DNA of 42,344 nucleotides, from positions 1 through 42,344 of the forward strand of contig DATDSD010000048.1 of NCBI GenBank assembly GCA_035291405.1, given 5' to 3'. The position numbers were made by a program, and so were the translations under genes. This DNA comes from Patescibacteria group bacterium. Its GTDB lineage: Bacteria; Patescibacteriota; Microgenomatia; UBA8517. The notes under the pieces are model-generated. The model saw only the letters and a list, made by a program, of their open reading frames with translations, had not been told where the DNA came from and ran no database searches. Of this stretch, positions 297-38,625 are shown one piece after another; the stretch's first letter is position 1, and the number at the start of each line of letters is the position of its first letter.

Positions 297-1508
297 TTAT
301 CTTGTTAATTTTTCACTTTTAAAAATCTTATATATAATCACACCAGCCCCTCCCGCAAACAACGAATGTAAAATACTTTGTAAATTATACGGATCAAAAA
401 TTTTTTGAATAAGTGTAAATGGCGTTGGAATTAAATCAAACCAACTACTATATATTCTGTACAAAGATATCGACATTGACCTATCCTGATACAGAAGTGG
501 AATAATTGTAGCAATTACTGCTAAATAAAATAAAGGATATGATAAATACGTTTTTTTGATAGATAATATCACTACAAAAGGAGCTATCCATAAAAGCCAA
601 GCGACATGAAAATGGGAAAAAGAAAATATAATTAGTAGGGTTGTTAACCAATATTTAAACACACTTATCTTTTTATCCATTAACCAGGCAATGTAAAATA
701 GTGCAGCAAATAGCAAAAGACCAACTATTATTGACTCACCAAAACCAACTTCAAAACCAGGATTAAATATTCTTGTGGTCAGGCCAGATATTAAAGTTGA
801 CTTGATAAAAGCCTGGGACATAAATGGTAAAGATATAAGGCCAAAAGTTAAAAACGGTATAAAGCCTAATAGAAATTTCTCTTTTATATTTTTACCTTTT
901 AAAATCAAAAACGGTACGAACAGTAGGGGATATAATTTAAACCCTGCTGCTATTCCCAATGATAAAGCAGCTAACTTTAATTTATTACTCTTAACCAAGA
1001 TTAAGGATAGTAATGTAATCGCAACTGGAAAGATATCAACGTTTCCAAATGCATAAATATAATAAATAGTAAAAGGATTAAAAAGCCACAACGTAAATGC
1101 TTTTTTATCTAATTTTTTATCATCAAAGTATTTTAATAATAAAAAGGCTATAGCAAAATCAAAAATCAAATAGGGTAATTTTAATATAACAAGGTATTTA
1201 AAAATATTTGGATCTAATGTAAAAGTATTGGAGTCAGCATTGTTTAACCAGGTACCAAATGCTTTGCCCAAAAACGGGGATGAAATAGCCTGATATCCTC
1301 CCAGTGTAAAATAAGTTAATGGAAAATAAACAAACTCATCTTTCATGGAAAGATTACTTTTATTAGTTTCTAGATAGGTGTATATGTTAAAAACTCCTCG
1401 TCTTAAGAATTGGCTCTGAAAATTAAAAGTTTTTATATCAGGATGAAATATAAAAGCTGAAACCAATAATCTTAAAACTACTGCCAAAATTAGTAATTTA
1501 ATCTTCAT
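297..1508 (-). CDS. polytopic membrane protein, probable GT-C-fold glycosyltransferase (GT87/DUF2029-like by eye)
   Basis: 403 aa, hydrophobic helices throughout, no soluble domain. Segments LKLPYLIFDFAIAFLL, FNPFTIYYIYAFGNVD and GFKLYPLLF resemble GT87/DUF2029-type mannosyltransferases. 11-nt overlap with the upstream gene. Confidence 0.45.
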   Translation of the reverse strand: MKIKLLILAVVLRLLVSAFIFHPDIKTFNFQSQFLRRGVFNIYTYLETNKSNLSMKDEFVYFPLTYFTLGGYQAISSPFLGKAFGTWLNNADSNTFTLDPNIFKYLVILKLPYLIFDFAIAFLLLKYFDDKKLDKKAFTLWLFNPFTIYYIYAFGNVDIFPVAITLLSLILVKSNKLKLAALSLGIAAGFKLYPLLFVPFLILKGKNIKEKFLLGFIPFLTFGLISLPFMSQAFIKSTLISGLTTRIFNPGFEVGFGESIIVGLLLFAALFYIAWLMDKKISVFKYWLTTLLIIFSFSHFHVAWLLWIAPFVVILSIKKTYLSYPLFYLAVIATIIPLLYQDRSMSISLYRIYSSWFDLIPTPFTLIQKIFDPYNLQSILHSLFAGGAGVIIYKIFKSEKLTR

Positions 1509-3132
1509 GTTTTAATTTTACTAATAAATATAAAAATGAAAAGAGTGATATTAAATCAAAAAAAAGTCTTAAAAACGATTCTTTATATTCTATTTCAACT
1601 TCATGTTTCCCGCTTGGAACCGCTAAACTAATTTGACCATATGGTTCCCCTGACATTATATTTACTTTCTTCCCATCAACTTTAGCTGTCCAGCCGGGGT
1701 AGTTATACTTATTATAACTAAGAGTAAAATTCTCAGTACTATCTGTTTTTATTTTTGCATTAAGAGCATTTATTTCCTGAATATCAAGTTTGACTAACTT
1801 GTTATCACTAAACACTCTTGGATAAACTTTATCTGGTCTAACTATAGTTTCTTTAGGTAATCTTAAATATTCTTCCGAAGTTTTTTTGTATTCTTCACTT
1901 GCAGATAGAATAGGAATATATCTATTTATATAATAATCATCAAGTCTCCCTAGATATTCACTTGTTTTAAAGTAATTAAAGTTAAGAGCAATAGAAAAAA
2001 CAATTATGACAAGCGCTAATATTTTTTGATATTTAAACTTTGCAAAAGATATCAAAAACAAAGGACTAACCAGTGTTGTCATTGCCAAAAATCTCCAAGG
2101 GAATTGAAAATAAGGTAAAAGTGGAAGATTTCTCCAAAGATAGGCAGATCGATAATTCATCATAAAGACACTTATTAAAAAGACTAAAATTGCCCAAATT
2201 AAAATTGTTCTTTTCTCAGTATCTATCTTTTTAAATTTGAAAAAAAACAAAACTGAACCTAACCCAACCACTATTAGCCCAACAGCACCCATATAAAAAG
2301 ACATTGTGTCGTAATTACCTGGAACTGATGCCCCATACCCCCAATAGGCGACAATAAATTGCTTTAATGCAGGAAAGTGATCATAAAAATTAAAAACCGT
2401 ATCATATTTCATTAAATTACTCTCATATATTGCGGGAAACCAAAAATAAATTGACGTAAGAAGTCCTAAAAAAAGACCTTTCAAGTTCTTAATAATATAT
2501 TTCTTTTGCAGAAAAATTAAAATAATAGCAAAGGGAAAAAACATATAAGATAAAATATTGTGCGACAATATAAGTGCTGCAGAGGAAATGGCCAGTATTA
2601 CATATTTTCCTTGAATAATTGCCAAAAGAATAATTGGAAAAAATACAAAAGCCACTATCTCCCCTACACTACCCCGCACAAATATTTCCAAGGCCCTATA
2701 AGGTGCATAGACGTAAAGAATTGAACCAGCCAGAGATAATTCTTCTGACAGATAATGCTTTAATAGTTTGTACATAAAATACATTGAGAAAGGAATTGAA
2801 AGTCCAAAGAGTAATTTCATACTGTTAACCAACGAAAAACCTATCAGGTGAAACACCTCAGCGATGTAAAAAGGTAGAGGGTAAACAAAAGTAAAAAGAG
2901 GATAACCGAAACCAAAGGAGAGATCTGGAACATATCTTGGTGGAAATTGTAGCATCTTTATAACTCTATCCATTTCATATAGCCATCCAATATGCAAATC
3001 GTCTGATACCCCAAAAAAACCATTTATAAATAGATATCGAACGGCAGGTAACGATATGATTAGTACTATTAACCATATGTACTTTGAAATTATTTTTTGA
3101 AATGATTCTGTCATTTGCACTTTTTTGTCCAT
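1498..3132 (-). CDS. GT-C-type membrane glycosyltransferase, tandem paralog A1 (YfhO-like architecture)
   Basis: 544 aa. Shares with A2/A3 an acidic first-loop motif (SDDLHIGWLYEM...RYVPDLSFGFGYPLF), YAPYRALEIFVRGSVGE and FQFPWRFL. It also shares a C-terminal beta-rich soluble region (PGWTAKVDGKKV...PSGKHEVEIEYK) plus a terminal TM helix. ATG 3114 forms an ATGA overlap with the A2 stop (TGA 3111-3113) and may be the true start. Confidence 0.55.
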   Translation of the reverse strand: MDKKVQMTESFQKIISKYIWLIVLIISLPAVRYLFINGFFGVSDDLHIGWLYEMDRVIKMLQFPPRYVPDLSFGFGYPLFTFVYPLPFYIAEVFHLIGFSLVNSMKLLFGLSIPFSMYFMYKLLKHYLSEELSLAGSILYVYAPYRALEIFVRGSVGEIVAFVFFPIILLAIIQGKYVILAISSAALILSHNILSYMFFPFAIILIFLQKKYIIKNLKGLFLGLLTSIYFWFPAIYESNLMKYDTVFNFYDHFPALKQFIVAYWGYGASVPGNYDTMSFYMGAVGLIVVGLGSVLFFFKFKKIDTEKRTILIWAILVFLISVFMMNYRSAYLWRNLPLLPYFQFPWRFLAMTTLVSPLFLISFAKFKYQKILALVIIVFSIALNFNYFKTSEYLGRLDDYYINRYIPILSASEEYKKTSEEYLRLPKETIVRPDKVYPRVFSDNKLVKLDIQEINALNAKIKTDSTENFTLSYNKYNYPGWTAKVDGKKVNIMSGEPYGQISLAVPSGKHEVEIEYKESFLRLFFDLISLFSFLYLLVKLKHED

Positions 3133-4757
3133 ATCAAAAGTCCTATAAAACTAAGGATCGATAATGTATTAGCAAATGTCCTTAGGAGAGTATTTCTAAA
3201 ATGGCCCTCAACATCATATTTTCCATCTGGGAGAAAAATTGAAATTCTACCTAAAACATTGTCATGAGTAATAATATGATTTTTTCCATTAACCTCAACT
3301 TCCCAATTAGGAAAATAAAAAATTGGCATTTCAATTTGAGTATCTTTTTTAACATCAATGTTAAAGGAAAATTTATTACTTTTATTTACAAAATCATAGA
3401 TAATTGCATCTCCAGAGATAATAATTGGGTCTATCTGTGCAGCTTCTCTAGGTTCAAGTGCAGTTTTGGGCAAATAATCTAAAAGTGCCCCCTTTCTCTG
3501 ATCGTCCCAAAGTTTACCTGACAATTTTTCTGAGTCTGAAACAGAATAATATTCTCGAGGTCTAAAATATCCCCAATTCAAAAAAATCGCCAATATTATT
3601 ATTAATAAACTAATAATTTTTCTATATTTCTCCTTTGCAATAAAAACAACTACTCCCCCCAATATTGATGATGTCAAAATTGATAATGACAAAAATCGCC
3701 AAGGAAATTGGAAAAATTGTAAAATTGAAATATTCTCCCAAAAGATAGTCGATTTGTTGTGAGTCATGAAGATCGAAAATAAAAATACTGTAAATATACC
3801 TAGTACTAAAATTTTTGTTTCCTTTTTAATCTTAGTTAAAAAGATGGCAACAACTGAAACTATGGTCAACAACCAATATGGCCATCCTATTTGAAAATTC
3901 ATTCCTCCCTCGGGCCCAGGAATTGAAGTTCCATAGCCCCAAACTCTGTCTAAAAATAACTGTTTGACACTAATAAAATTTGCTCTGTAATCCAACTCAA
4001 ATCTGGTTAGACTCTCAGTTTGAACTAGATTTTTCTCTAAAAATGCAGGAAGAGTAAAAAATGCAGACATTCCAAACGCTAAGATCAAAGACAGTAATAT
4101 TGGTTTTAAGGCTTTAAATTTTCCAACCCATACCCAATAAAACATCCAAACTAAAACAATTGGAACAAAAATAACTGTCATTATGTTATGAGTTATTAAA
4201 AATAAAAATAGTGTCAAAGAAAATAGTAAGTAATTTTTTTTCTCGGAAACAATAGCCTTATAACCAAAATATAAAACAAATGGGATTATGGAAAGCGCCA
4301 AGCTTTCTGATAATGCTCCCCTGACATAGATATCTAGCGCTTTATATGGTGCAAACATATAAAGAATTGCGGATGTTAGACCGGCATATTTACCCCACAA
4401 ATTCTTGATCAACAAATACATTCCAAAACTACCTCCAATAAGTGCCATAAAGAAAAGTATCTTTGCCGATCCAATAAATCCAAAAACAAAACTTAAAATT
4501 GCACCTAAATAATAAGCTAGGGGGCCATAAAAATTAAAAAGTGGCATTCCATTTCCCCACCCCATATCAGGAACCCACCTACAAGGGATTTGAAAATCGG
4601 AAAAACACTTCCTCATCTCAAATATCCTAATTATCTGTAAATCGTCTTGATGTGAAAAGTAACCGCTTCTAAAAAGAGGCCACGAAACAAACAATCCAAA
4701 GATAAATATTACTAAAAAAGGCCAATGTTTTTTTATTGTTTCTTTGATATTAGCCAT
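3111..4757 (-). CDS. GT-C-type membrane glycosyltransferase, tandem paralog A2
   Basis: 548 aa. SHQDDLQIIRIFEM...IPCRWVPDMGWGNGMPLFNFYGPLAYY; FAPYKALDIYVRGALSE; FQFPWRFL. C-terminal FPNWEVEVNGK...PDGKYDVEGHF plus a terminal TM. 25-nt overlap with the A3 end. Confidence 0.55.
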   Translation of the reverse strand: MANIKETIKKHWPFLVIFIFGLFVSWPLFRSGYFSHQDDLQIIRIFEMRKCFSDFQIPCRWVPDMGWGNGMPLFNFYGPLAYYLGAILSFVFGFIGSAKILFFMALIGGSFGMYLLIKNLWGKYAGLTSAILYMFAPYKALDIYVRGALSESLALSIIPFVLYFGYKAIVSEKKNYLLFSLTLFLFLITHNIMTVIFVPIVLVWMFYWVWVGKFKALKPILLSLILAFGMSAFFTLPAFLEKNLVQTESLTRFELDYRANFISVKQLFLDRVWGYGTSIPGPEGGMNFQIGWPYWLLTIVSVVAIFLTKIKKETKILVLGIFTVFLFSIFMTHNKSTIFWENISILQFFQFPWRFLSLSILTSSILGGVVVFIAKEKYRKIISLLIIILAIFLNWGYFRPREYYSVSDSEKLSGKLWDDQRKGALLDYLPKTALEPREAAQIDPIIISGDAIIYDFVNKSNKFSFNIDVKKDTQIEMPIFYFPNWEVEVNGKNHIITHDNVLGRISIFLPDGKYDVEGHFRNTLLRTFANTLSILSFIGLLIWTKKCK

Positions 4758-6406: not shown

Positions 6407-6412
6407 TTCTTC

Positions 6413-6420
6413 ATTTTACA
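6413..6420 (-). promoter_or_regulatory. -10 box TG-TAAAAT, 6 nt upstream of GTG 6406
   Basis: Minus strand: TGTAAAAT GAAGAA GTG. Confidence 0.35.
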
Positions 6421-6447
6421 ACAAAATGGGGTCTTTTTATTTATTGA

Positions 6448-6938
6448 TTACTTTTTATTCAAATCAATCTTTACTCTTACATCAAGCCTTGAATTCGGAT
6501 CATTCATCCAAACCGTTTTTGGAGTAATTTTATAAATTTTATATTTTTTACCATCAAAAACCATTGACTTAATAAACTGCATTGCTCTCTTGGTATTAAT
6601 TCCGCCATAGGGATATTCTCTTAATCCGTAAAGCTTAGCAATTCTTAATGAATCTTTTAAATTTACAGCTTCTGCAATTGCTTCAATTTGAAGTCCTATT
6701 CCTCGCCCCAAAGTTGTTGTGAATCAAAAATTGCGACTGCAACTTTCTTATTTTTGGAAATATTTTTACAATGTTCTGAAGTTGGCATTGAAACAAAATA
6801 CAAGTTCCAATCTTTATCAAAACAATAAACTACCGGAGAAATCCATGGACTGTTTCCTCCGACTGAAGCAATTGTTAGATATTGATTACCCTCAATTATT
6901 TTTCTAGCTAATCTATTTAAATCTCTAACCATGAACAT
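6448..6938 (-). pseudogene. pyridoxamine 5'-phosphate oxidase-like (FMN-binding split-barrel) gene interrupted by a frameshift
   Basis: Two adjacent ORFs (6696-6986 and 6448-6711) read as one PNPOx-like protein: ...YLTIASVGGNSPWISPVVYCFDKDWNLYFVSMPTSEHCKNI..VAVAIFDSQQL / GRGIGLQIEAIAEAV... Frames switch inside CTTTGGGGC (T3G4 run, 6701-6712). The likely start, ATG 6938-6936 (MFMVRD), forms a TAATG overlap with the stop of the upstream GT2. Confidence 0.6.
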
Positions 6939-17917: not shown

Positions 17918-17956
17918 AAATAAATAAACTATTTTAATCTTAATTCGAAAGAATAA

Positions 17957-18521
17957 TTATTGCATTAGAAGTTTTAATAATACGGGAATTTCAAAAACAC
18001 CATCTTCTGCAGAAAAATGACCTTTTTTATCTTCAACAATAATCTCTGCATTAAAGTTATCTTTAAATAATTTTTTATTAATTTAAAAAAGGTACTACAG
18101 GATCATCTTTAGAAAAAATACAAATAACCTTTTCCACTTTTTCTTTTATATTTTTCATATTTACATCAAATTTTAACCACGGTTCTGCCAATAATTTTTC
18201 TTCATTAGTTGATAAATTTAAATACCACCATGGCGCAACTAAAATAAGTCTATCTGCTTTTTGATCGGTGGAAACAGTATTCAAAAATCTTAAAATTGTT
18301 TGACAACCAATTGAATGACCAATAAAAATATCATCATCCTTAATTTCACCAACAACTTCATGCAATTTATTCACCCATAAACCAATTTTTGGATAATTAG
18401 TATCAGGCATTTCAGGTACAACCACCTCAAATCCTAAATTTGAAATTTCTTTTTTTGCCCAAGGAAACCATTCCTTCTTTGGATTTCCTCCCCAACCGTG
18501 AATTATAAAAACCCTAGACAT
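17957..18521 (-). pseudogene. YdeN/RBBP9-like alpha/beta serine hydrolase interrupted by a +1 frameshift
   Basis: The 147-aa ORF (18078-18521) has VFIIHGWGGNP and the nucleophile elbow GHSIGC but stops at ...DPVVPFLN*. The missing C-terminus (NKKLFKDNFNAEIIVEDKKGHFSAEDGVFEIPVLLKLLMQ*, with the family GHF histidine) continues in the +1 frame to TAA 17957-17959. The switch lies within CCTTTTTTAAATTAAT (about 18072-18087). Confidence 0.6.
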
Positions 18522-18536
18522 TTATATATATTAGTA

Positions 18537-33210: not shown

Positions 33211-34059
33211 TTATTTATATTTAAATGTAGACTTTAAAATGTCTTCAGCTACATTTTTATTCTTCGCCGTTATTAAAAACAATTTTTCATCTTGCCCCCA
33301 AGTTTTAAAATCATAACTTCCGATGAAATTTCCATTTTTATCCACCATTACACCTCCTAATGTCGTATTCATTAAATATAAAATCGGTTGTTCCAAATTA
33401 CCTTTTCTTGTTACTTCAATTAATCCACAATATTTATTGTCTGTGCAAATTGAAAAAATTGACCAAGCTGTAGAACCGGTCATTACCCATGGCTTATCAC
33501 CATAAACAGTTAATTCTTCTGGAAAATATTTATTGGCCAACATCTTAGAATCACTAAATTTTTCATCTACTACAAAATTTTTTAATTTTTCAAAATTTTT
33601 TGTTTTTACATCATATACATATACCCCATCGTTTTTAATCGTTATTATAATTTTTGCTTCTTCCATCATGGCAAGACCGGAAATTATAAAGTCGTCATAT
33701 TTTGGATTATTAACTTTTGCTACAGCAATCATAGTTCCATATCCAAACTCGGATTTTGCAAGATAATTACTACTTCCATCTAGTCCATCAAAAACAGAAA
33801 AAATTTGCCCTTCTCCTTCACCTATTTCTCCTTCACCTATTTCTTCACCTTTATAAATTAACTTAGTTTTTGATTCTTTCGAATAATTTTTAAGTGATGC
33901 CAAAAGAATTTCTTCGGCTTCAACGTCAGCCCTCATGGCCATGTCTCCAAATCTATTTTGTTTATCTTTTAATTTTCCTTTTTCACCTAATTTAAGATGG
34001 TTATCATAAACTTTTAATAAACCGTCAAATATAATTTGTTGAAGAGGATCAAATTTCAT
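33211..34059 (-). CDS. IMPase/FBPase-superfamily sugar phosphatase
   Basis: 282 aa. The metal/phosphate motif VFDGLDGSSNY matches DP(I/L)DG(S/T)xN, and an upstream EAEE acidic motif is present. Contains an in-frame EIGEG duplication. Confidence 0.55.
   Translation of the reverse strand: MKFDPLQQIIFDGLLKVYDNHLKLGEKGKLKDKQNRFGDMAMRADVEAEEILLASLKNYSKESKTKLIYKGEEIGEGEIGEGEGQIFSVFDGLDGSSNYLAKSEFGYGTMIAVAKVNNPKYDDFIISGLAMMEEAKIIITIKNDGVYVYDVKTKNFEKLKNFVVDEKFSDSKMLANKYFPEELTVYGDKPWVMTGSTAWSIFSICTDNKYCGLIEVTRKGNLEQPILYLMNTTLGGVMVDKNGNFIGSYDFKTWGQDEKLFLITAKNKNVAEDILKSTFKYK
33813..33850. repeat. 15-bp in-frame tandem duplication (2.5 copies)
   Basis: ctccttcacctattt occurs twice, plus a partial copy. 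It encodes EIGEGEIGEGE in the IMPase-like protein. Confidence 0.8.
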
Positions 34060-34062
34060 AAA

Positions 34063-34818
34063 TTAGAAAAGTAAGGCTAGGGCAGACAATGTATATCCAT
34101 CTTTAAATTCATATATTTTTCCATCTGAATCTTTATATTCCTGTTTTTTGATAATTTCTTTTAATTCTTCATTATCAACAATCAAGAGTCCCTTAATAGC
34201 CTCTGTTGCTTCCCTTTCCGGTTTTCCTGTAATTTCAATTACTGCCTTATAAATCTCAACCCTTGAAGATAAAACTGCAGAATCTGGAAAAACTTCACCA
34301 ATTTTTTGTGGATCTCCAATCATTTCAGCTCCCATTTCTTCTGAAAGTTCATTCTTAACAGTTTTTAAGAGGCTGTTTCCTAAATCCTTTCCACCCCTTG
34401 GAAATTCAATACACCAATTTTTTGTAGCATTACGATAGTTTTTCAAAAAAATTAATTTTCCATCTGTAGTAAATGGAGCAATTACAACACCAGCAAATCC
34501 AGATTCTAAACTTCCCCAAGAAATCCATCTATTAAAGGTTGTATAACTTCCATCAGGCAATCTTAAAGGTTCATGCACAGAAAGTCCCCATCTGTTTTCA
34601 TCAAAAATTCCTATTTGAGCTCTCTTTCTGGCGTCTTCTAAAGAAGCTCCGGATTTAAACATTCTTTCCGCAGCACCTTCTTCACACTGGGGAAACAAAT
34701 TAATATCAAAAATCATTTCAATTTCACCTTTTGTGTAATCACCAACATAACCTAAATGGGATTTATATTTTTCTACGAAGTCTAAATATTCTTTGTATCT
34801 TTCTTCTGAAAATTTCAT
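34063..34818 (-). CDS. Nudix hydrolase with N-terminal extension
   Basis: 251 aa. Near-canonical Nudix box G-GKDLG-N-SLLKTVK-NELSEEMGA (Gx5Ex7REUxEExGU with E->N and R->N; the EUxEExGU core is kept). Confidence 0.6.
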   Translation of the reverse strand: MKFSEERYKEYLDFVEKYKSHLGYVGDYTKGEIEMIFDINLFPQCEEGAAERMFKSGASLEDARKRAQIGIFDENRWGLSVHEPLRLPDGSYTTFNRWISWGSLESGFAGVVIAPFTTDGKLIFLKNYRNATKNWCIEFPRGGKDLGNSLLKTVKNELSEEMGAEMIGDPQKIGEVFPDSAVLSSRVEIYKAVIEITGKPEREATEAIKGLLIVDNEELKEIIKKQEYKDSDGKIYEFKDGYTLSALALLF

Positions 34819-34826
34819 ATGAAGTT

Positions 34827-34835
34827 ATTCTAACA
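34827..34835 (-). promoter_or_regulatory. extended -10 TGTTAGAAT, 8 nt upstream of ATG 34818
   Basis: Minus strand: TGTTAGAAT AACTTCAT ATG. Confidence 0.45.
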
Positions 34836-34850
34836 TAAAAAATGTCTTTC

Positions 34851-34912
34851 TTGCCGTGCGGTTGATTTTAAAAAATTAAATTAATAATTTTTTTATCATA
34901 CCGCACAGGCAA
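34851..34912. other. long-loop hairpin at the left island boundary (possible terminator/insulator)
   Basis: TTGCCGTGCGGT (34851-34862) pairs with ACCGCACAGGCAA (34900-34912), with one bulged A. The 37-nt loop (34863-34899) is 100% A/T. Confidence 0.35.
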
Positions 34913-35208
34913 AACTCCTTGACACCCAGTCACCTCTTTATTACAACAGCGCAGAACGCTATTGGTTTACGGAAGTGGCTAGGAGCCAGAAGTAATAATC
35001 ATTTAGGGTTTTTTTGGATCATTTTTCGCTCTTGGTTGAGCGGAAGGAGAACCCATTAACCTTTCCTTAAGGACTCTCATTTTGCCTTGTAGCAAAGACA
35101 AAAATCTTTAGCTGGGATGAAAGATAGGTGCATGGCCATTAGCATCCATCCTTTGACAATGATGAATCGAGAGTTTCCTTAACAGGGAGTTAGGAACTTA
35201 ACTCTTGG
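34913..35208. ncRNA. candidate structured non-coding RNA or long structured 3' UTR (strand unresolved)
   Basis: ~300 nt, about 45% G+C, with no ORF of 60 aa or more on either strand. Several local hairpins and one long-range helix are listed in the findings. TTGACA at 34919-34924 faces into it on the + strand. Confidence 0.25.
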
Positions 35209-35784
35209 TTAGTCGAACAATCCCACCATAAACGCCTTGCCGATCACTGACTGACCCATCTGGTCGCGATGTTTTGCGAAAGTTTTGAACTTCATCCAGA
35301 AGGGTTTACCAGCAAGGTTAGGAAGGCTGTCCGCTTTCCGAATTACGGCGATTTCATGAACAATTCCGTCGCCGCCAATGACACGGGCAGTATTTGAGTC
35401 TCCTCGGCCCAGGGATACAATTTCAACTTCAACACCTTCGGGTAAATCCGGAAGGTCTTTTTTGTTGTCCCAGGACTTCCTAGAAACTTCAACACGTGGC
35501 CCAGTGTGCCGTTGGTTCCGCTGTACTGCAACGTACCAAACACCCTTATACTTTGCTACCAAGGGTCGGATTAGACCAATGGTGCCATCCGGTTTCTCTA
35601 CCTCTTTAATAAGGGGTTGAAATACCGGGAGATCGGGATGACGACGCTCAGCTGGCTCAAACGAATAGAGCGTCTCTTGCCCTGTTTCTGAGTCGATGTG
35701 GAAAAACCTGAAGGTATCACCCTCATATTCTTCATAGACCCAACCGCCAGGGTAAACTTTACGGTGAACTACTTTCTTAAGCAT
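35209..35784 (-). CDS. hypothetical protein, Nudix-fold-like without a Nudix box (GC-rich, probably xenologous)
   Basis: 191 aa. By eye it aligns to the C-terminal domain of the rmlB fusion: YKGVWYVAVQRNQRHTGPRVEVS vs RKGEITHLATQREQKFPTGSVEYT, and EIVSLGR vs QIISLGR. The Nudix helix is absent. It has its own promoter and an AGGAG SD. Confidence 0.6.
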   Translation of the reverse strand: MLKKVVHRKVYPGGWVYEEYEGDTFRFFHIDSETGQETLYSFEPAERRHPDLPVFQPLIKEVEKPDGTIGLIRPLVAKYKGVWYVAVQRNQRHTGPRVEVSRKSWDNKKDLPDLPEGVEVEIVSLGRGDSNTARVIGGDGIVHEIAVIRKADSLPNLAGKPFWMKFKTFAKHRDQMGQSVIGKAFMVGLFD

Positions 35785-35790
35785 TGTACT

Positions 35791-35795
35791 CTCCT
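35791..35795 (-). promoter_or_regulatory. Shine-Dalgarno AGGAG, 6 nt upstream of ATG 35784
   Basis: Minus strand reads ...TTTAACAGGAGAGTACAATG. Confidence 0.6.
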
Positions 35796-35823
35796 GTTAA
35801 AGAGCGCAGATGATCCAGCCTGC

Positions 35824-35851
35824 ATTTTACCATTTTGAATCTAAAAGTCAA
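35824..35851 (-). promoter_or_regulatory. sigma70-type promoter of the island gene
   Basis: Minus strand: TTGACT (35851-35846), 16-nt spacer, TGG-TAAAAT (35832-35824). The -35 box begins 4 nt after the rmlB-fusion stop. Confidence 0.55.
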
Positions 35852-35854
35852 GAA

Positions 35855-37747
35855 TTATAGGATATTTTTATTGAGGTTTAAACGGGTTAAAGCTGAAAGG
35901 AAATAGGCATCATCACATTTATTAATAAGGTCAGCTAGTTTATCAATTGGCCAAAGAACAATTCCTTCATCTTCTTCAAATTTATCCCCTTTTTGACAAT
36001 CTTTATAAAGATCATCTGATAGATTAACTATAACTGCATAAAGGTTTGGTTTGTTATTTGTCATACCTGCGTCTGGGTTAAGTCTGCCAAGGGAAATTAT
36101 TTGATCCAAAACTACATCATTTTTAGCTACACTTAGGTTCAAGTCTTTTTGAATAGATCTAATTATAAAATCTAAAACTGATTCATTTAATTTTGGAAAA
36201 CCTCCTGCCAAAGTATACTCAACACTTCCTGTTGGAAACTTTTGTTCTCTTTGTGTTGCTAAATGGGTGATTTCTCCCTTTCTCTTAACTAAAACTAAAA
36301 GTTTAGCACCTGATTTAGGTCCCCAACCCCAGGAATAATATCCTTCCATCCTTTTAACTTTAAGTTTGTTTTCAACTTCAAACCAAGATCCGATACCATA
36401 TACCCCAAATTTGGGATCGGCATGCTCTATCTTTGACAGCTTTAAGATAGTATCCCCGTTTATATGGTCATCTCTTCCCGCCAAGTCCTCAACATATCCA
36501 AAAGTTGAGGGGTTAATCCCTAATGTTTTTATTTCATCTTTTATTTCTGAGGAACTATTCTGATACCATTTTTTACTTTCAAGATTTTTCATTACAATCT
36601 CGTATCTGACTAAATTTTGTTCTACAAAATGTTTGTCGGCATCAAAGGCAACTTTATCTTTTTTTACAGGCTTCTCTATTTTTCCAAAAACAAATTTAGT
36701 TTTACCTGACTCTCTATCAAGGGAGATATAGGCAGAAATTGTTTTTGAAGAATCCATGATCATTGCCTTTCTTTTAAGAAGTGGTCTCCACCAATCTTCG
36801 TTTTCTTTGTACCATTTGATTGTTTCTTTAAGTCCCTCATTAAAATCATCTCTTCCAATCTCTGGTTTCCAACCTAACTCTTCAATAATTTTTGTAGCAT
36901 CAATGGCATACCTTCTATCATTACTGTGTCTATCAGAAACATGTCTGATCATATTTTCATCTGCACCAAATAGTTCCACAACTTTCTTGGCAATGTAGCC
37001 ATTGCTCCTGTCATTATTTGAACCCACTAAATATGTTTCACCTTTTTTGCCTTTTTGAAGAATTAAATCAATTGCTGATGAGTGGTCTCTTGTGTGAATC
37101 CAATCTCTGACGTTTCTACCGTCACCATGAAGAGGAACTTTAATATTATCAATTAAATTAGCAACGATTATTGGAACATATTTTTCAGGAAACTGGTAGG
37201 GTCCGTAATTATTAGAACAATTAGAAATAGTAATATACATTCCAGTTTTTTGGTAAAAATCTAACACAATATTGTCAGCTTCAGCTTTTGAAAGAGCATA
37301 TAGATTATCTGGTCTTGGAGAGTATGGAGTTTTCTCACTAAATTTTGCTTCTGAATCTAAAGGAAGCTCTCCATAAACTTCATCCGTACTTATATGATGA
37401 AATCTTGGAACTCCTGCTTTTTGTGCTTCCTCAAGAAGGGTTAAGGTTCCATGAACATTTGTCTGCCAATAGGTTGATGGATCAAAAATTGCTCTATCTA
37501 CATGACTTTCTGCAGCAAAATGGACAACAGCATCAACGCCCTTTAAGTGCTCTGACATTTTTTTCCTGTCGTTAATATCAGCCTCAACAAACTCAATTTC
37601 CTTTTTGACTGGAGTTAAATTTTCAATGTTTCCAGCATAAGTTAAGGCATCAACAACAATGATTTTATCTTGGGGGTGTTTTTCCACCCAATAGTGAACA
37701 AAATTTGCTCCTATAAAACCCGCTGCGCCTGTTACAAGTAATTTCAT
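35855..37747 (-). CDS. rfbB: dTDP-glucose 4,6-dehydratase (RmlB-type) fused to a ~300-aa C-terminal domain with a degenerate Nudix fold
   Basis: 630 aa. The N-terminal ~330 aa are RmlB-like: LLVTGAAGFIGANFV...FAAESHVDRA...HISTDEVYG...PYALSKAEAD (YxxxK). The C-terminus has G-FPKLN-E-SVLDFII-RSIQKDLNL, the Nudix box positions with REUxEE replaced by RSIQKD. ATGA overlap with galU. Confidence 0.8.
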   Translation of the reverse strand: MKLLVTGAAGFIGANFVHYWVEKHPQDKIIVVDALTYAGNIENLTPVKKEIEFVEADINDRKKMSEHLKGVDAVVHFAAESHVDRAIFDPSTYWQTNVHGTLTLLEEAQKAGVPRFHHISTDEVYGELPLDSEAKFSEKTPYSPRPDNLYALSKAEADNIVLDFYQKTGMYITISNCSNNYGPYQFPEKYVPIIVANLIDNIKVPLHGDGRNVRDWIHTRDHSSAIDLILQKGKKGETYLVGSNNDRSNGYIAKKVVELFGADENMIRHVSDRHSNDRRYAIDATKIIEELGWKPEIGRDDFNEGLKETIKWYKENEDWWRPLLKRKAMIMDSSKTISAYISLDRESGKTKFVFGKIEKPVKKDKVAFDADKHFVEQNLVRYEIVMKNLESKKWYQNSSSEIKDEIKTLGINPSTFGYVEDLAGRDDHINGDTILKLSKIEHADPKFGVYGIGSWFEVENKLKVKRMEGYYSWGWGPKSGAKLLVLVKRKGEITHLATQREQKFPTGSVEYTLAGGFPKLNESVLDFIIRSIQKDLNLSVAKNDVVLDQIISLGRLNPDAGMTNNKPNLYAVIVNLSDDLYKDCQKGDKFEEDEGIVLWPIDKLADLINKCDDAYFLSALTRLNLNKNIL

Positions 37748-38625
37748 TTTAAGTCAAGTGAAGCTAAATATTTTTTGAACTCACCATTTAAGTCTTTGTG
37801 TTTTAATGCAAACTCGACAACTGTTTTTAAGTATTCAAGTTTACTTCCAGTGTCATAATAGGTTCCATTCTTAATCTCACAGGCATAAACAGGAATCCCT
37901 TGTTCTCTTAAGACATTGATCGCATCTACTAACCACACTTCTCCACCTTTTGTTGGTTTAAGATTTTTTAAAGCAGGAAAAATTTCGGGAGGTAAAATAT
38001 AAGCTCCATGAGTCGCTAAATTAGAAGGGGCTTCTTCAGGAAGAGGTTTTTCTACTATTCTTTTAATTTCAAATACACCATCAGCAACATCTTTGAGTTC
38101 CGCAATACCATATTTTGATAGTCTATCTTTAGACTCAATTCTAACGCCTGAAATTACCACTCCTCCGTATTTTTCCCACACTTTCATCATTTGAGACAGT
38201 CGAGGAGGATCAGAACTAATAAACTCATCTCCCCATAAAACAGCAAAACTTTCACTTCCAATTACCGATTCAGCCGAGAGAACGGGTGTTCCGTTTCCAT
38301 AAATTCCTTTTTGTCTGACATATATGAAATTTGCCATCTCAGCAATTTTATTTATTTCCTTTAATAGCTCTTCTTTACCTCCCCGAATTAAGTTATTCAC
38401 TAAATCTGCATTTGGTAAATCAAAATGATCTTCAATTGCTCTTTTTGATGATCCAGTAACTATAACAACATCTTCTATTCCACTGTTAACGGCTTCTTCA
38501 ACTACATACTGAATGACAGGTTTATCTACAATGGGAAGCATCTCTTTAGGCATAGCTTTTGTCTGAGGAAGGAATCTAGTTCCAAAGCCAGCTGCTGGTA
38601 TTACTGCCTTCGTTATTTTTTTCAT
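37744..38625 (-). CDS. galU: UTP--glucose-1-phosphate uridylyltransferase
   Basis: 293 aa. KAVIPAAGFGTRFLPQTKAMPKEMLPIVDKPVIQYVVEEA...VLWGDEF...YDTGSKLEYL. Confidence 0.85.
   Translation of the reverse strand: MKKITKAVIPAAGFGTRFLPQTKAMPKEMLPIVDKPVIQYVVEEAVNSGIEDVVIVTGSSKRAIEDHFDLPNADLVNNLIRGGKEELLKEINKIAEMANFIYVRQKGIYGNGTPVLSAESVIGSESFAVLWGDEFISSDPPRLSQMMKVWEKYGGVVISGVRIESKDRLSKYGIAELKDVADGVFEIKRIVEKPLPEEAPSNLATHGAYILPPEIFPALKNLKPTKGGEVWLVDAINVLREQGIPVYACEIKNGTYYDTGSKLEYLKTVVEFALKHKDLNGEFKKYLASLDLK

Follow-up and report, generated by a model that had tools for sequence, protein, structure and literature searches.

A GC-rich cassette of an orphan protein gene and a predicted structured RNA within the rhamnose operon of a Patescibacteria group bacterium

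Layout of the island

The window analysed here is the whole of a 42,344-nt contig (DATDSD010000048.1), whose coordinates are used throughout, from a candidate-phyla-radiation bacterium that is Microgenomates/Woesebacteria-like and has about 31% G+C. Within its rhamnose operon lies an island of about 1 kb that carries one gene, for a 191-aa protein, and, 3' of this gene, non-coding DNA that we predict to specify a conserved RNA; this gene and RNA are the subject of the present report. The operon runs in the order RmlA, RmlB fusion, island, Nudix-like, inositol monophosphatase (IMPase)-like, cupin-like, RmlC and RmlD, so that the island stands inside a nucleotide-sugar operon, as an earlier note on this DNA, made from the letters alone, had stated. 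All genes in the region of the island are on the minus strand. Loci used for comparison are labelled L001 to L019. The island and its predicted signals, including the 5' untranslated region (UTR) as well as the Shine-Dalgarno (SD) sequence, are laid out as follows.

34842..35861, minus strand: island of 1020 bp, present in the window and without counterpart in L016 and L017
35824..35851, minus strand: sigma-70-type promoter from a consensus scan, with -35 TTGACT at 35846-35851, a 16-nt spacer and a TG-extended -10 TAAAAT at 35824-35829
35785..35817, minus strand: predicted 5'UTR of about 33 nt, its start placed by the position of the -10 box
35810-35817, minus strand: segment A, UGGAUCAU, located at the predicted mRNA 5' end or close to it
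35800-35806, minus strand: segment B, CGCUCUU, in the 5'UTR
35789-35795, minus strand: SD sequence AGGAGAG, 5 nt ahead of the ATG
35209..35784, minus strand: coding sequence (CDS) of the 191-aa orphan-family protein, whose predicted fold is Nudix-like and which lacks a Nudix box
34915..34992, minus strand: second long hairpin (-36.1 kcal/mol, z = -6.3, a stability that none of 200 shuffles attains)
34837..34925, minus strand: terminator-like composite hairpin with a GC-rich base, an internal loop and an A/U extension, then U6

The limits of the island are placed at 34842 and 35861 because the blastn matches to the related contig L016 stop and resume there, 29 nt apart: window 37749..35862 corresponds to L016 46..1935, and window 34841..33725 to L016 1965..3079. 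These limits nearly equal the coordinates proposed in the earlier note (34851-35851). In 200-nt windows the G+C fraction is 0.44-0.51 over positions 34900-35800 against 0.23-0.39 in the flanks, and no second 1-kb stretch exceeds 0.40 anywhere in the 42 kb. The 191-aa gene has a G+C fraction at third codon positions (GC3) of 0.47, whereas the 34 other open reading frames (ORFs) of at least 150 aa average 0.23 (standard deviation 0.027, maximum 0.29); the excess of +0.24 amounts to about 9 standard deviations of the host distribution. Even the weakly conserved spacer at 34926-35002 has 44% G+C, against 22-36% in host intergenic regions. The jump in composition that the earlier note had described is therefore real, the island being the sole GC-rich one in the window (42-51% G+C against about 31%), and on recounting its four hand counts (29/60, 32/60, 16/60 and 19/60) were correct.

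The full promoter, recovered by the consensus scan, the leader (estimated earlier at about 30 nt and here put at about 33 nt) and the SD sequence are all present as the same note had listed them, the extended -10 region reading TG-G-TAAAAT. Promoter and 5'UTR are near-invariant across loci and more tightly conserved than the CDS: the block TTGACTTTTAG..TCAAA..-10 upstream of the gene is kept in nine other loci, and the conserved pattern through the 5'UTR is TTGACTTTTAG..TCAAA..-10..UGGAUCAnnUnCGCGCUCAUUAACAGGAGA. Among the host's own genes a four-nucleotide SD core lies within 25 nt upstream in 4 of the 34 other ORFs, and a five-nucleotide core in 1 of 34, in agreement with the earlier description of these genes as mostly lacking an SD sequence. 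Since the SD core is so rare in host ORFs, the expression signals of the island can be called foreign in style. The sequence further suggests that leaderless mRNAs are widespread among the host genes; in several of these the start codon is preceded, at 6-10 nt, by a -10-like box that is often TG-extended, for example at 34827-34835 before the ATG at 34818.

At its distal end the island closes with a composite hairpin (34925..34837; -31.5 kcal/mol, z = -6.6) with UUUUUU directly after it. As a hairpin followed by a U-tract this is a predicted intrinsic terminator, of a length that exceeds what a simple terminator scanner handles. The U-tract runs up to the -10 box of the next gene (TGTTAGAAT, 34827-34835), and the hairpin arm is single-copy in the window. 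L018 and L006 have a terminator of like build behind the RNA, with CCGUACGG arms, a long interior and a U-run, and a 36-nt block of the terminator is 97% identical to L015 1306-1340. A hairpin at 34851-34913 does exist, as had been noted before, but the 37-nt A/T loop ascribed to it is not open and itself forms a 9-bp helix. Likewise, the two inward-facing CTTGAC boxes noted near the ends are both present but are neither element ends nor terminal repeats: one is the -35 hexamer of the gene, kept in all homologous loci, and the plus-strand box, CTTGACA, sits in the stem of the second long hairpin, which has no obvious conservation in other loci.

The orphan protein and the RNA behind its gene

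Codon-position divergence between the window and L003 is 0.22/0.10/0.52, which shows the ORF to be a genuine CDS under purifying selection. The protein has no Pfam or NCBIfam match at E<=0.1 and none in PHROG or PADLOC; ten distant members of its family have no Pfam match either, and the family profile finds no sequence match among PDB chains at E<=10. Close homologs form 14 clusters among 5.8 billion proteins, and a profile search returned 16 family representatives among 1.84 billion proteins. In GTDB the family was found in 1 of 185,579 species representatives, a Ca. Woesebacteria metagenome-assembled genome (L006), by a scan with two short peptide patterns that may miss divergent members. 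This is a tiny orphan family, absent from Pfam.

An AlphaFold2 (AF2) model of the protein, built from 13 sequences, has a predicted local distance difference test score (pLDDT) of 78.7. All 50 listed Foldseek matches to it in the PDB are Nudix-fold or Nudix-like-domain structures (best E 5e-4, TM-scores 0.17-0.49), among them ADP-ribose pyrophosphatases, the Nudix domain of NrtR, RppH and EvaA. The nearest known group is therefore the Nudix superfamily (PF00293) with its alpha/beta/alpha fold, in particular the ADP-ribose pyrophosphatase-like branch and non-catalytic members such as NrtR and CFIm25, although the match of the predicted fold is weak, and in our own reading of the alignment the strand motifs VAVxRNxRH...VE and G.GDSNTAR of the island family resemble those of ADP-ribose pyrophosphatase-type Nudix proteins. 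Nudix hydrolases, however, carry the Nudix box and match the family profile, and the island protein does neither: the box GX5EX7REUXEEXGU was found by neither a strict nor a relaxed regular expression in the window protein or in 18 family members. Because the box is missing, Pfam, NCBIfam and PDB give no sequence match and the TM-scores are low, activity as a Nudix hydrolase is unlikely, and the protein should not be filed as one. The family protein does have many invariant Arg, Lys and Asn residues.

The earlier note had also taken the protein to be homologous to its AT-rich neighbours, a xenolog recombined in beside resident paralogs. This was not upheld: hhalign gives a probability of 0.07% for the pairing with the adjacent 251-aa protein and 0.15% for that with the C-terminal domain of the RmlB fusion. 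The sole link of the 191-aa protein to these neighbours is its weak predicted-fold match to the Nudix superfamily, a relation at most at the level of the fold superfamily.

In every locus with a close homolog of the gene, 190-380 nt of non-coding DNA lie 3' of it and can be aligned across loci. In the window this region measures about 370 nt, the first 200 nt or so being the conserved RNA. What had been described as about 300 nt of GC-rich non-coding DNA is accordingly present, but it is not filler; it is a conserved RNA, structured by prediction, that travels with the gene. Its predicted elements, in 5' to 3' order, are these.

35187-35204, minus strand: hairpin H0, directly after the stop codon
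35179-35189, minus strand: anti-SD-like CUCC(C)UGUUAA, overlapping H0 (joint region 35179..35204)
35069..35180, minus strand: 5' domain of the RNA, a three-way junction of P1, P2/P2a and P3
35169-35180 with 35069-35078, minus strand: P1, a long-range helix with compensatory changes in 8/8 pairs
35115-35154, minus strand: P2/P2a, with compensatory changes in 4/4 pairs of P2
35091-35113, minus strand: P3, with compensatory changes in 7/8 pairs
35003..35068, minus strand: 3' domain of the RNA, with invariant AAGGUUA..GGGUU..CCU, P5, GAGCGAAAAAUGAUCCA and AAACCC
35027-35042, minus strand: hairpin P5 of the 3' domain
35027-35033 (B') and 35015-35022 (A'), minus strand: single-stranded GAGCGAAAAAUGAUCCA, in invariant columns
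35006-35010, minus strand: AAACCC, pairing with GGGUU (P6)

RNAalifold, run on the two subgroups of sequences independently, returned one shared architecture of H0, the P1-P3 junction and the 3' domain with P5. A covariance model built from five group-1 sequences only finds at full length the window (49 bits, E 1e-10), L003 and L005 (E <= 1e-10), and it also finds L018 at E 2.7e-33. In the alignment of eight RNA sequences 88.6% of cells are paired, against 37-50% when the partners are slid; 28 of the 38 pairs have compensatory changes, and the observed values were reached in 0 of 500 shuffles. H0 also covaries between the groups, GAGGCUA/UAGCCUC in one being matched by GAGUUA/UAACUC in the other. 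MAFFT misaligned the 5' half across both RNA subgroups, as well as L014 in the concatenated UTRs, and for this reason the covariance-model alignment was used and L014 handled separately. The window contains the invariant pattern of the 3' domain once only, where 0 occurrences are expected by chance.

Taken together, these comparisons identify the 3' stretch as a predicted conserved structured RNA, about 200 nt long and without a counterpart in Rfam. Rfam 15 at the gathering score gave nothing in the window, L001-L003, L005 or L006, and at E<=10 it gave only noise on 34750-35950 (E 4.5-9.5); ARAGORN found no tRNA or tmRNA, and full-text literature searches yielded no description of this RNA motif. 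Gene and RNA co-occur across 38-100% amino acid identity, the most distant such member, L014 (38%), having the RNA as well. A metagenome-wide scan with the invariant 22-nt pattern returned seven loci, of which two carry both gene and RNA. In the other five (L007, L008, L009, L011 and L012) an RNA without the gene was considered and rejected, since similarity is limited to the 22-nt A-rich pattern and the matches are attributed to chance. A role as leader or riboswitch of the next gene was likewise set aside: downstream genes differ between loci (rho, DUF218, Nudix), their own TTGACA promoters lie after the RNA, and in the window, L018 and L006 the RNA is succeeded by a long hairpin, which ends in a U-run in the window and L018.

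The loop of P2a (35125-35140, minus strand) is self-complementary, reading AUGGCCAU in the window and ACAGGCCUGU in L003 and L005, and the group-1 loops keep a GCCU core. It may serve for kissing-loop contacts or dimerisation, or be touched by a protein.

Complementarity between the untranslated regions

Complementarity between the 5'UTR and the invariant GAGCGAAAAAUGAUCCA of the 3' region takes the form of two helices. Helix A joins UGGAUCA(U) to (A)UGAUCCA and, judged from the position of the -10 box, would lie at the very 5' end of the mRNA. Helix B joins CGCUC(A/U)UU to AA(U/A)GAGCG, and its 5'UTR strand mimics the 5' strand of P5. RNAduplex places the duplex in one register in 10 of 10 loci (-19 to -24 kcal/mol), and RNAcofold, with the whole 3'UTR RNA free to fold, keeps it in 9 of 9 loci with a change in free energy (ddG) of -9.6 to -18.9. 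When the UTRs of nine loci are concatenated and aligned, pairs form in 95.9% of cells; sliding the partners lowers this to 25-34%. Compensatory changes among the nine close loci comprise GGAUCG/CGAUCC in L002 and an exchange of A-U for U-A in helix B (window and L010).

L014 lends the duplex independent support. There, matching deletions and substitutions on both strands give UGGUCAUU-GCUCUUU with AAAGAGC-A-AAUGACCA (-21.1 kcal/mol); the next-best window of that locus reaches -14.7 kcal/mol, and none comes within 6 kcal/mol of the duplex. L019 belongs to a distant 280-aa subfamily with the same synteny (904-aa protein, gene, rho), and there the 5'UTR element and the RNA are both absent. In L019 (4940-5000 and 5843-5900) we also saw that the CTTGACTTTT -35 box is kept, that a AAAACCCTAG remnant follows the stop codon, and that the leader has CUCCUG instead of an SD sequence.

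All nine close loci have beside H0 an anti-SD-like CUCCUG(UU) that is able to pair with AACAGGAG. Inspection by eye showed nothing promoter-like between the CDS and the RNA, the formal scan having covered the window only; this and the position of the terminator lead us to infer co-transcription. Conservation and covariation of the RNA and complementarity between the 5' and 3' segments are matters of observation, and from them it appears that the 3'UTR RNA of the gene pairs with the 5' end of its own mRNA. That both UTRs lie on one transcript and meet in vivo is our inference, and the sign of the effect (repression or protection) and the part taken by the protein are proposed on the same footing.

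Origin, rival explanations and meaning

Relatives at the insertion site were found through homologs of the 251-aa downstream neighbour and then their contigs. The genes that frame the island in the window are the following.

37744-38625, minus strand: RmlA, member of the rhamnose operon
35855..37747, minus strand: RmlB dTDP-glucose 4,6-dehydratase with a C-terminal domain of about 300 aa, upstream flank, outside the island
34063..34818, minus strand: 251-aa Nudix-like protein, downstream flank, outside the island, with its own, apparently leaderless, promoter

The RmlB fusion matches TIGR01181 at 2.4e-119 over residues 2-323, and the fusion is kept in relatives, the same 630-aa protein occurring in L016 (48-1940). 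Its C-terminal domain, in which no intact Nudix box is present, weakly resembles the 251-aa Nudix-like neighbour by BLASTP (E 0.001). The 251-aa protein matches PF00293 at E 0.0025, below the cut-off, and NudE at 3e-6, and has 90% identical homologs in L016 and L017. Elsewhere in the window two stretches are without an ORF of at least 150 aa, both within a packed glycosylation array: 17918-18536 (619 nt, 27% G+C) and 6407-6937 (531 nt, 31%), neither with a match in Rfam.

L016 and L017 have 33% G+C and about 80% DNA identity to the window. In each of them only 29 nt separate the 630-aa RmlB fusion from the promoter of the Nudix gene, which is an empty site; the operon without the island, which the earlier note had proposed to look for in relatives, thus exists with a 29-nt spacer. 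L015 (31.6% G+C) has a different 2.85-kb cargo at the same site (493-3339), with five AT-rich genes of GC3 0.18-0.23. These genes encode proteins of 131, 134, 132, 244 and 192 aa, the last matching DUF3800; a CTTGACTT -35-like box stands directly after the RmlB-fusion stop, and the 36-nt terminator-like piece (1306-1340) is placed between convergent genes. As the window, L016/L017 and L015 differ in this way, the site is polymorphic: empty, occupied by the cassette, or occupied by other cargo.

The other loci of the family share a different, conserved housekeeping setting, with sortase, a large protein of about 900 aa, gene and RNA, and rho, at 40-47% G+C. The closest homologs of the window copy have 67-78% amino acid identity, the nearest of them 77-78%, and stand in loci of about 40-42% G+C with GC3 of 0.44-0.48; third codon positions are about 50% diverged from them and yet have not been ameliorated toward the host value of 0.23. 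In L018 (7056-10199, about 40% G+C) gene and RNA are immediately followed by a homolog of the Nudix gene (71% identical) and then by rho, an adjacency that may be coincidence or may reflect a functional link. Recombination through homology of the Nudix gene, as this arrangement might invite, was rejected, the homology to L016 resuming upstream of the Nudix promoter.

The composition of the island, its limits and the empty site are plain observations, and an unusual composition in a segment that close relatives lack at this position is what characterises a horizontally acquired island. Acquisition from an unsampled donor of about 40% G+C is favoured because of the G+C and GC3 of the homologs, the lack of amelioration, the GC-rich spacer and the empty site, and most likely the cassette came from a related lineage of that composition, a direction that we deduce from the sequences. 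The discrete module of about 1 kb and foreign composition, with its own promoter, SD sequence and terminator, that the earlier note had put forward is thereby supported; of its suggestion of a small mobile or regulatory module, the regulatory half comes close to the mark and the mobile half finds no sign of autonomous mobility. On balance we think it probable, with some reserve, that the island is an acquired, self-contained cassette combining an orphan Nudix-like protein, a structured 3'UTR and a 5'/3'-UTR pairing of the kind seen in icaR and hbs.

Several observations weigh against this reading. On the side of the RNA, covariation was measured on eight sequences, in a covariance-model alignment that is itself fitted to the structure, and for the 3' domain a local hairpin P4' and a pseudoknot P4+P6 both fit the data. 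As to the pairing, compensatory changes in the nine close loci amount to only two pairs (three cells), most paired positions being invariant; in GC-richer loci from a few to 26 other windows equal or beat the duplex in energy; SD:anti-SD pairing occurs in the minimum-energy cofold of only 2 of 9 loci; and the conservation of the UTRs could reflect two binding sites for a common factor. The Nudix-fold assignment consists of weak matches (TM 0.17-0.49) to one AF2 model from 13 sequences. With regard to origin, the three relative lineages at the site are roughly equidistant from the window, L015 keeps 36 nt of the terminator hairpin that could be the scar of an older presence, the adjacency to a Nudix homolog in L018 is like that of the window but occurs in the usual neighbourhood of the family, and most of the island is functionally constrained sequence. 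Finally, the gene has a GC3 above its neighbours in all seven other loci examined and is the richest or nearly the richest in every host, so that the gene itself, and not only a recent transfer, accounts for some of the excess in G+C. The earlier note had held that the same GC-rich gene at the same position in relatives would speak for an old resident; at this position the relatives lack it, but the gene is GC-rich in every genome examined.

It is from these last observations that an old-resident explanation draws. The cassette would have been deleted precisely in L016 and L017 and largely replaced in L015, its G+C having been kept up because RNA structure, codon choice or high expression was under selection, rather than being a trace of recent transfer. 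Consistent with this are the elevated GC3 in the seven loci, the constraint on promoter, 5'UTR, RNA and terminator alike, the 97%-identical terminator piece and the CTTGACTT box in L015, and the fact that in L018, too, the cassette immediately precedes a homolog of this Nudix gene. We nevertheless judge it unlikely: a GC3 excess of some 9 standard deviations is accompanied by high G+C in a spacer that is weakly conserved, all other loci share a different neighbourhood (large surface protein, gene, rho), the closest homologs reside in loci of about 40-42% G+C, and the empty site in L016 and L017 is a clean 29-nt spacer. A splice of a fragment from a co-occurring organism of about 40% G+C into the contig would account for the abrupt change of composition and the composition of the closest homologs, in data that are presumably metagenomic. 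Such a chimera is hardly credible, because the contig resumes the operon exactly where the relatives continue (29 nt on in L016), a clean insertion that is not expected of a chimera; moreover, the limits coincide with a complete promoter-to-terminator unit, the terminator U-tract merges into the promoter of the next gene, and AT-rich L015 shares 36 nt of the island terminator. Nearly as implausible are a small mobile element inserting through terminal repeats of its own (a miniature inverted-repeat transposable element, an insertion sequence (IS)-like element or an integrative islet) and a variable hotspot occupied by a cassette for defence or of toxin-antitoxin type, for which one could cite the three states of one intergenic site among relatives, the CTTGAC boxes near both ends and a weak DUF3800 match in a defence library for the L015 cargo. 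ORF and repeat checks in and next to the island agree with the earlier note in finding no integrase, transposase or target-site duplication, and there is no terminal inverted repeat beyond 6-7 nt. One of the boxes is the -35 conserved in all loci, the cassette occurs as one copy in the window and one per locus, its syntenic position in its usual hosts is stable, and neither PADLOC nor PHROGs nor viral-contig, phage and plasmid collections (IMG/VR, INPHARED, PLSDB) give a match. An IS200/IS605-like pair (Y1 transposase and a 404-aa ORF) was seen just downstream of rho in L001 (12296-14343), where it does not adjoin the cassette.

A further alternative concerns function. The 3' RNA might act mainly in trans or within a ribonucleoprotein, being a stable RNA, processed from the 3'UTR or separately transcribed and bound by the encoded Nudix-like protein, in which case complementarity to the 5'UTR would be secondary, as feedback by the released RNA, or would represent coincidental binding sites. 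Nudix-fold proteins without hydrolase activity can bind RNA, CFIm25/NUDT21 being an example, and the strongly covarying P1-P3 junction lies outside the 5'/3' pairing; the many invariant Arg, Lys and Asn residues of the protein and the joint occurrence of gene and RNA across 38-100% identity fit this as well. Against it, the stretch between CDS and RNA shows by eye no promoter-like sequence (the window alone having been formally scanned), and H0 begins within a few nucleotides of the stop codon. We regard this explanation as possible, though rather doubtful as the principal one; it is compatible with the favoured reading rather than exclusive of it, and binding of the RNA by the protein is putative.

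Under the favoured reading of an acquired, self-pairing cassette, the unit would have entered the spacer of 29 nt that separates the genes for the RmlB fusion and the Nudix-like protein, bringing on the minus strand its promoter, a 33-nt 5'UTR with SD sequence, the 191-aa gene, a 3'UTR of about 370 nt and the terminator of hairpin and U6. In the transcript an exposed AUGAUCCA would offer a toehold to UGGAUCAU at the extreme 5' end of that mRNA; the 5'UTR segment CGCUC(A/U)UU, the mimic of the P5 5' strand, would then invade P5, and the outcome would be a bipartite duplex of 13-17 bp between the UTRs. The anti-SD-like CUCCUGUU beside H0 may also pair with the SD region. By analogy with icaR and hbs, such pairing might control the stability of the message, its translation or both, and the encoded protein is a plausible putative ligand of the three-way-junction domain, which would provide feedback.

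The closest experimentally studied precedents are the 5'/3'-UTR interaction of icaR mRNA in S. aureus (PMC3868564) and the 14-bp interaction of hbs mRNA in B. subtilis (PMC5737220). As in icaR, a long 3'UTR of a predicted monocistronic mRNA is complementary to its own 5'UTR, and the UCCCCUG of the icaR 3'UTR and the CUCCUG(UU) of the cassette are both C-rich and anti-SD-like. The best-supported duplex of the cassette, however, involves the extreme 5' end and a segment upstream of the SD sequence, not the SD sequence itself, whose pairing is only possible. The three-way-junction domain has no counterpart in icaR, and RNase III cleavage and a translation block would be only putative for the cassette, which has no sequence similarity to icaR and no Rfam family. 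With hbs the cassette has in common a long-range duplex of similar length, a short mRNA and a strong SD sequence, and by analogy decay that depends on the 5' end or is endonucleolytic could be held off by sequestration of the 5' region; it differs in gene, organism and sequence, and its duplex is bipartite and would compete with the local hairpin P5.

Flexible islets occur in polysaccharide and O-antigen gene clusters. The present site is likewise one intergenic position between conserved sugar-nucleotide genes at which presence and absence alternate and cargo is swapped, but the cargo in this case is unrelated to glycan synthesis, being a gene with an RNA module whose home locus lies beside rho.

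Self-pairing of the 5' and 3' ends of a bacterial mRNA is a rare kind of self-regulation. The known cases come with little comparative evidence, and here the pairing is deduced purely by comparison of 10 loci. What is new is an undescribed 3'UTR RNA, supported by covariation and co-inherited with an orphan protein of predicted Nudix fold, in an uncultivated lineage whose post-transcriptional control is almost unexplored. A bolder reading, which we hold to be improbable, is that of an undescribed transferable ribonucleoprotein and regulatory module of candidate-phyla-radiation bacteria, in which a catalytically dead Nudix-fold protein might recognise either the junction RNA of its own 3'UTR or the nucleotide status of the mRNA 5' end held against that RNA, and in this way might set a toehold switch between the local hairpins (H0 and P5) and a circularised, 5'/3'-paired mRNA; were it true, a new RNA family and a new protein family would together form one autoregulatory unit. 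The findings yield concrete hypotheses that are open to mutational testing. Since the whole unit of promoter, SD sequence, CDS, RNA and terminator apparently can move intact into a host whose genes are mostly without SD sequences or leaderless, it would constitute a natural example of a portable, self-insulated expression module.

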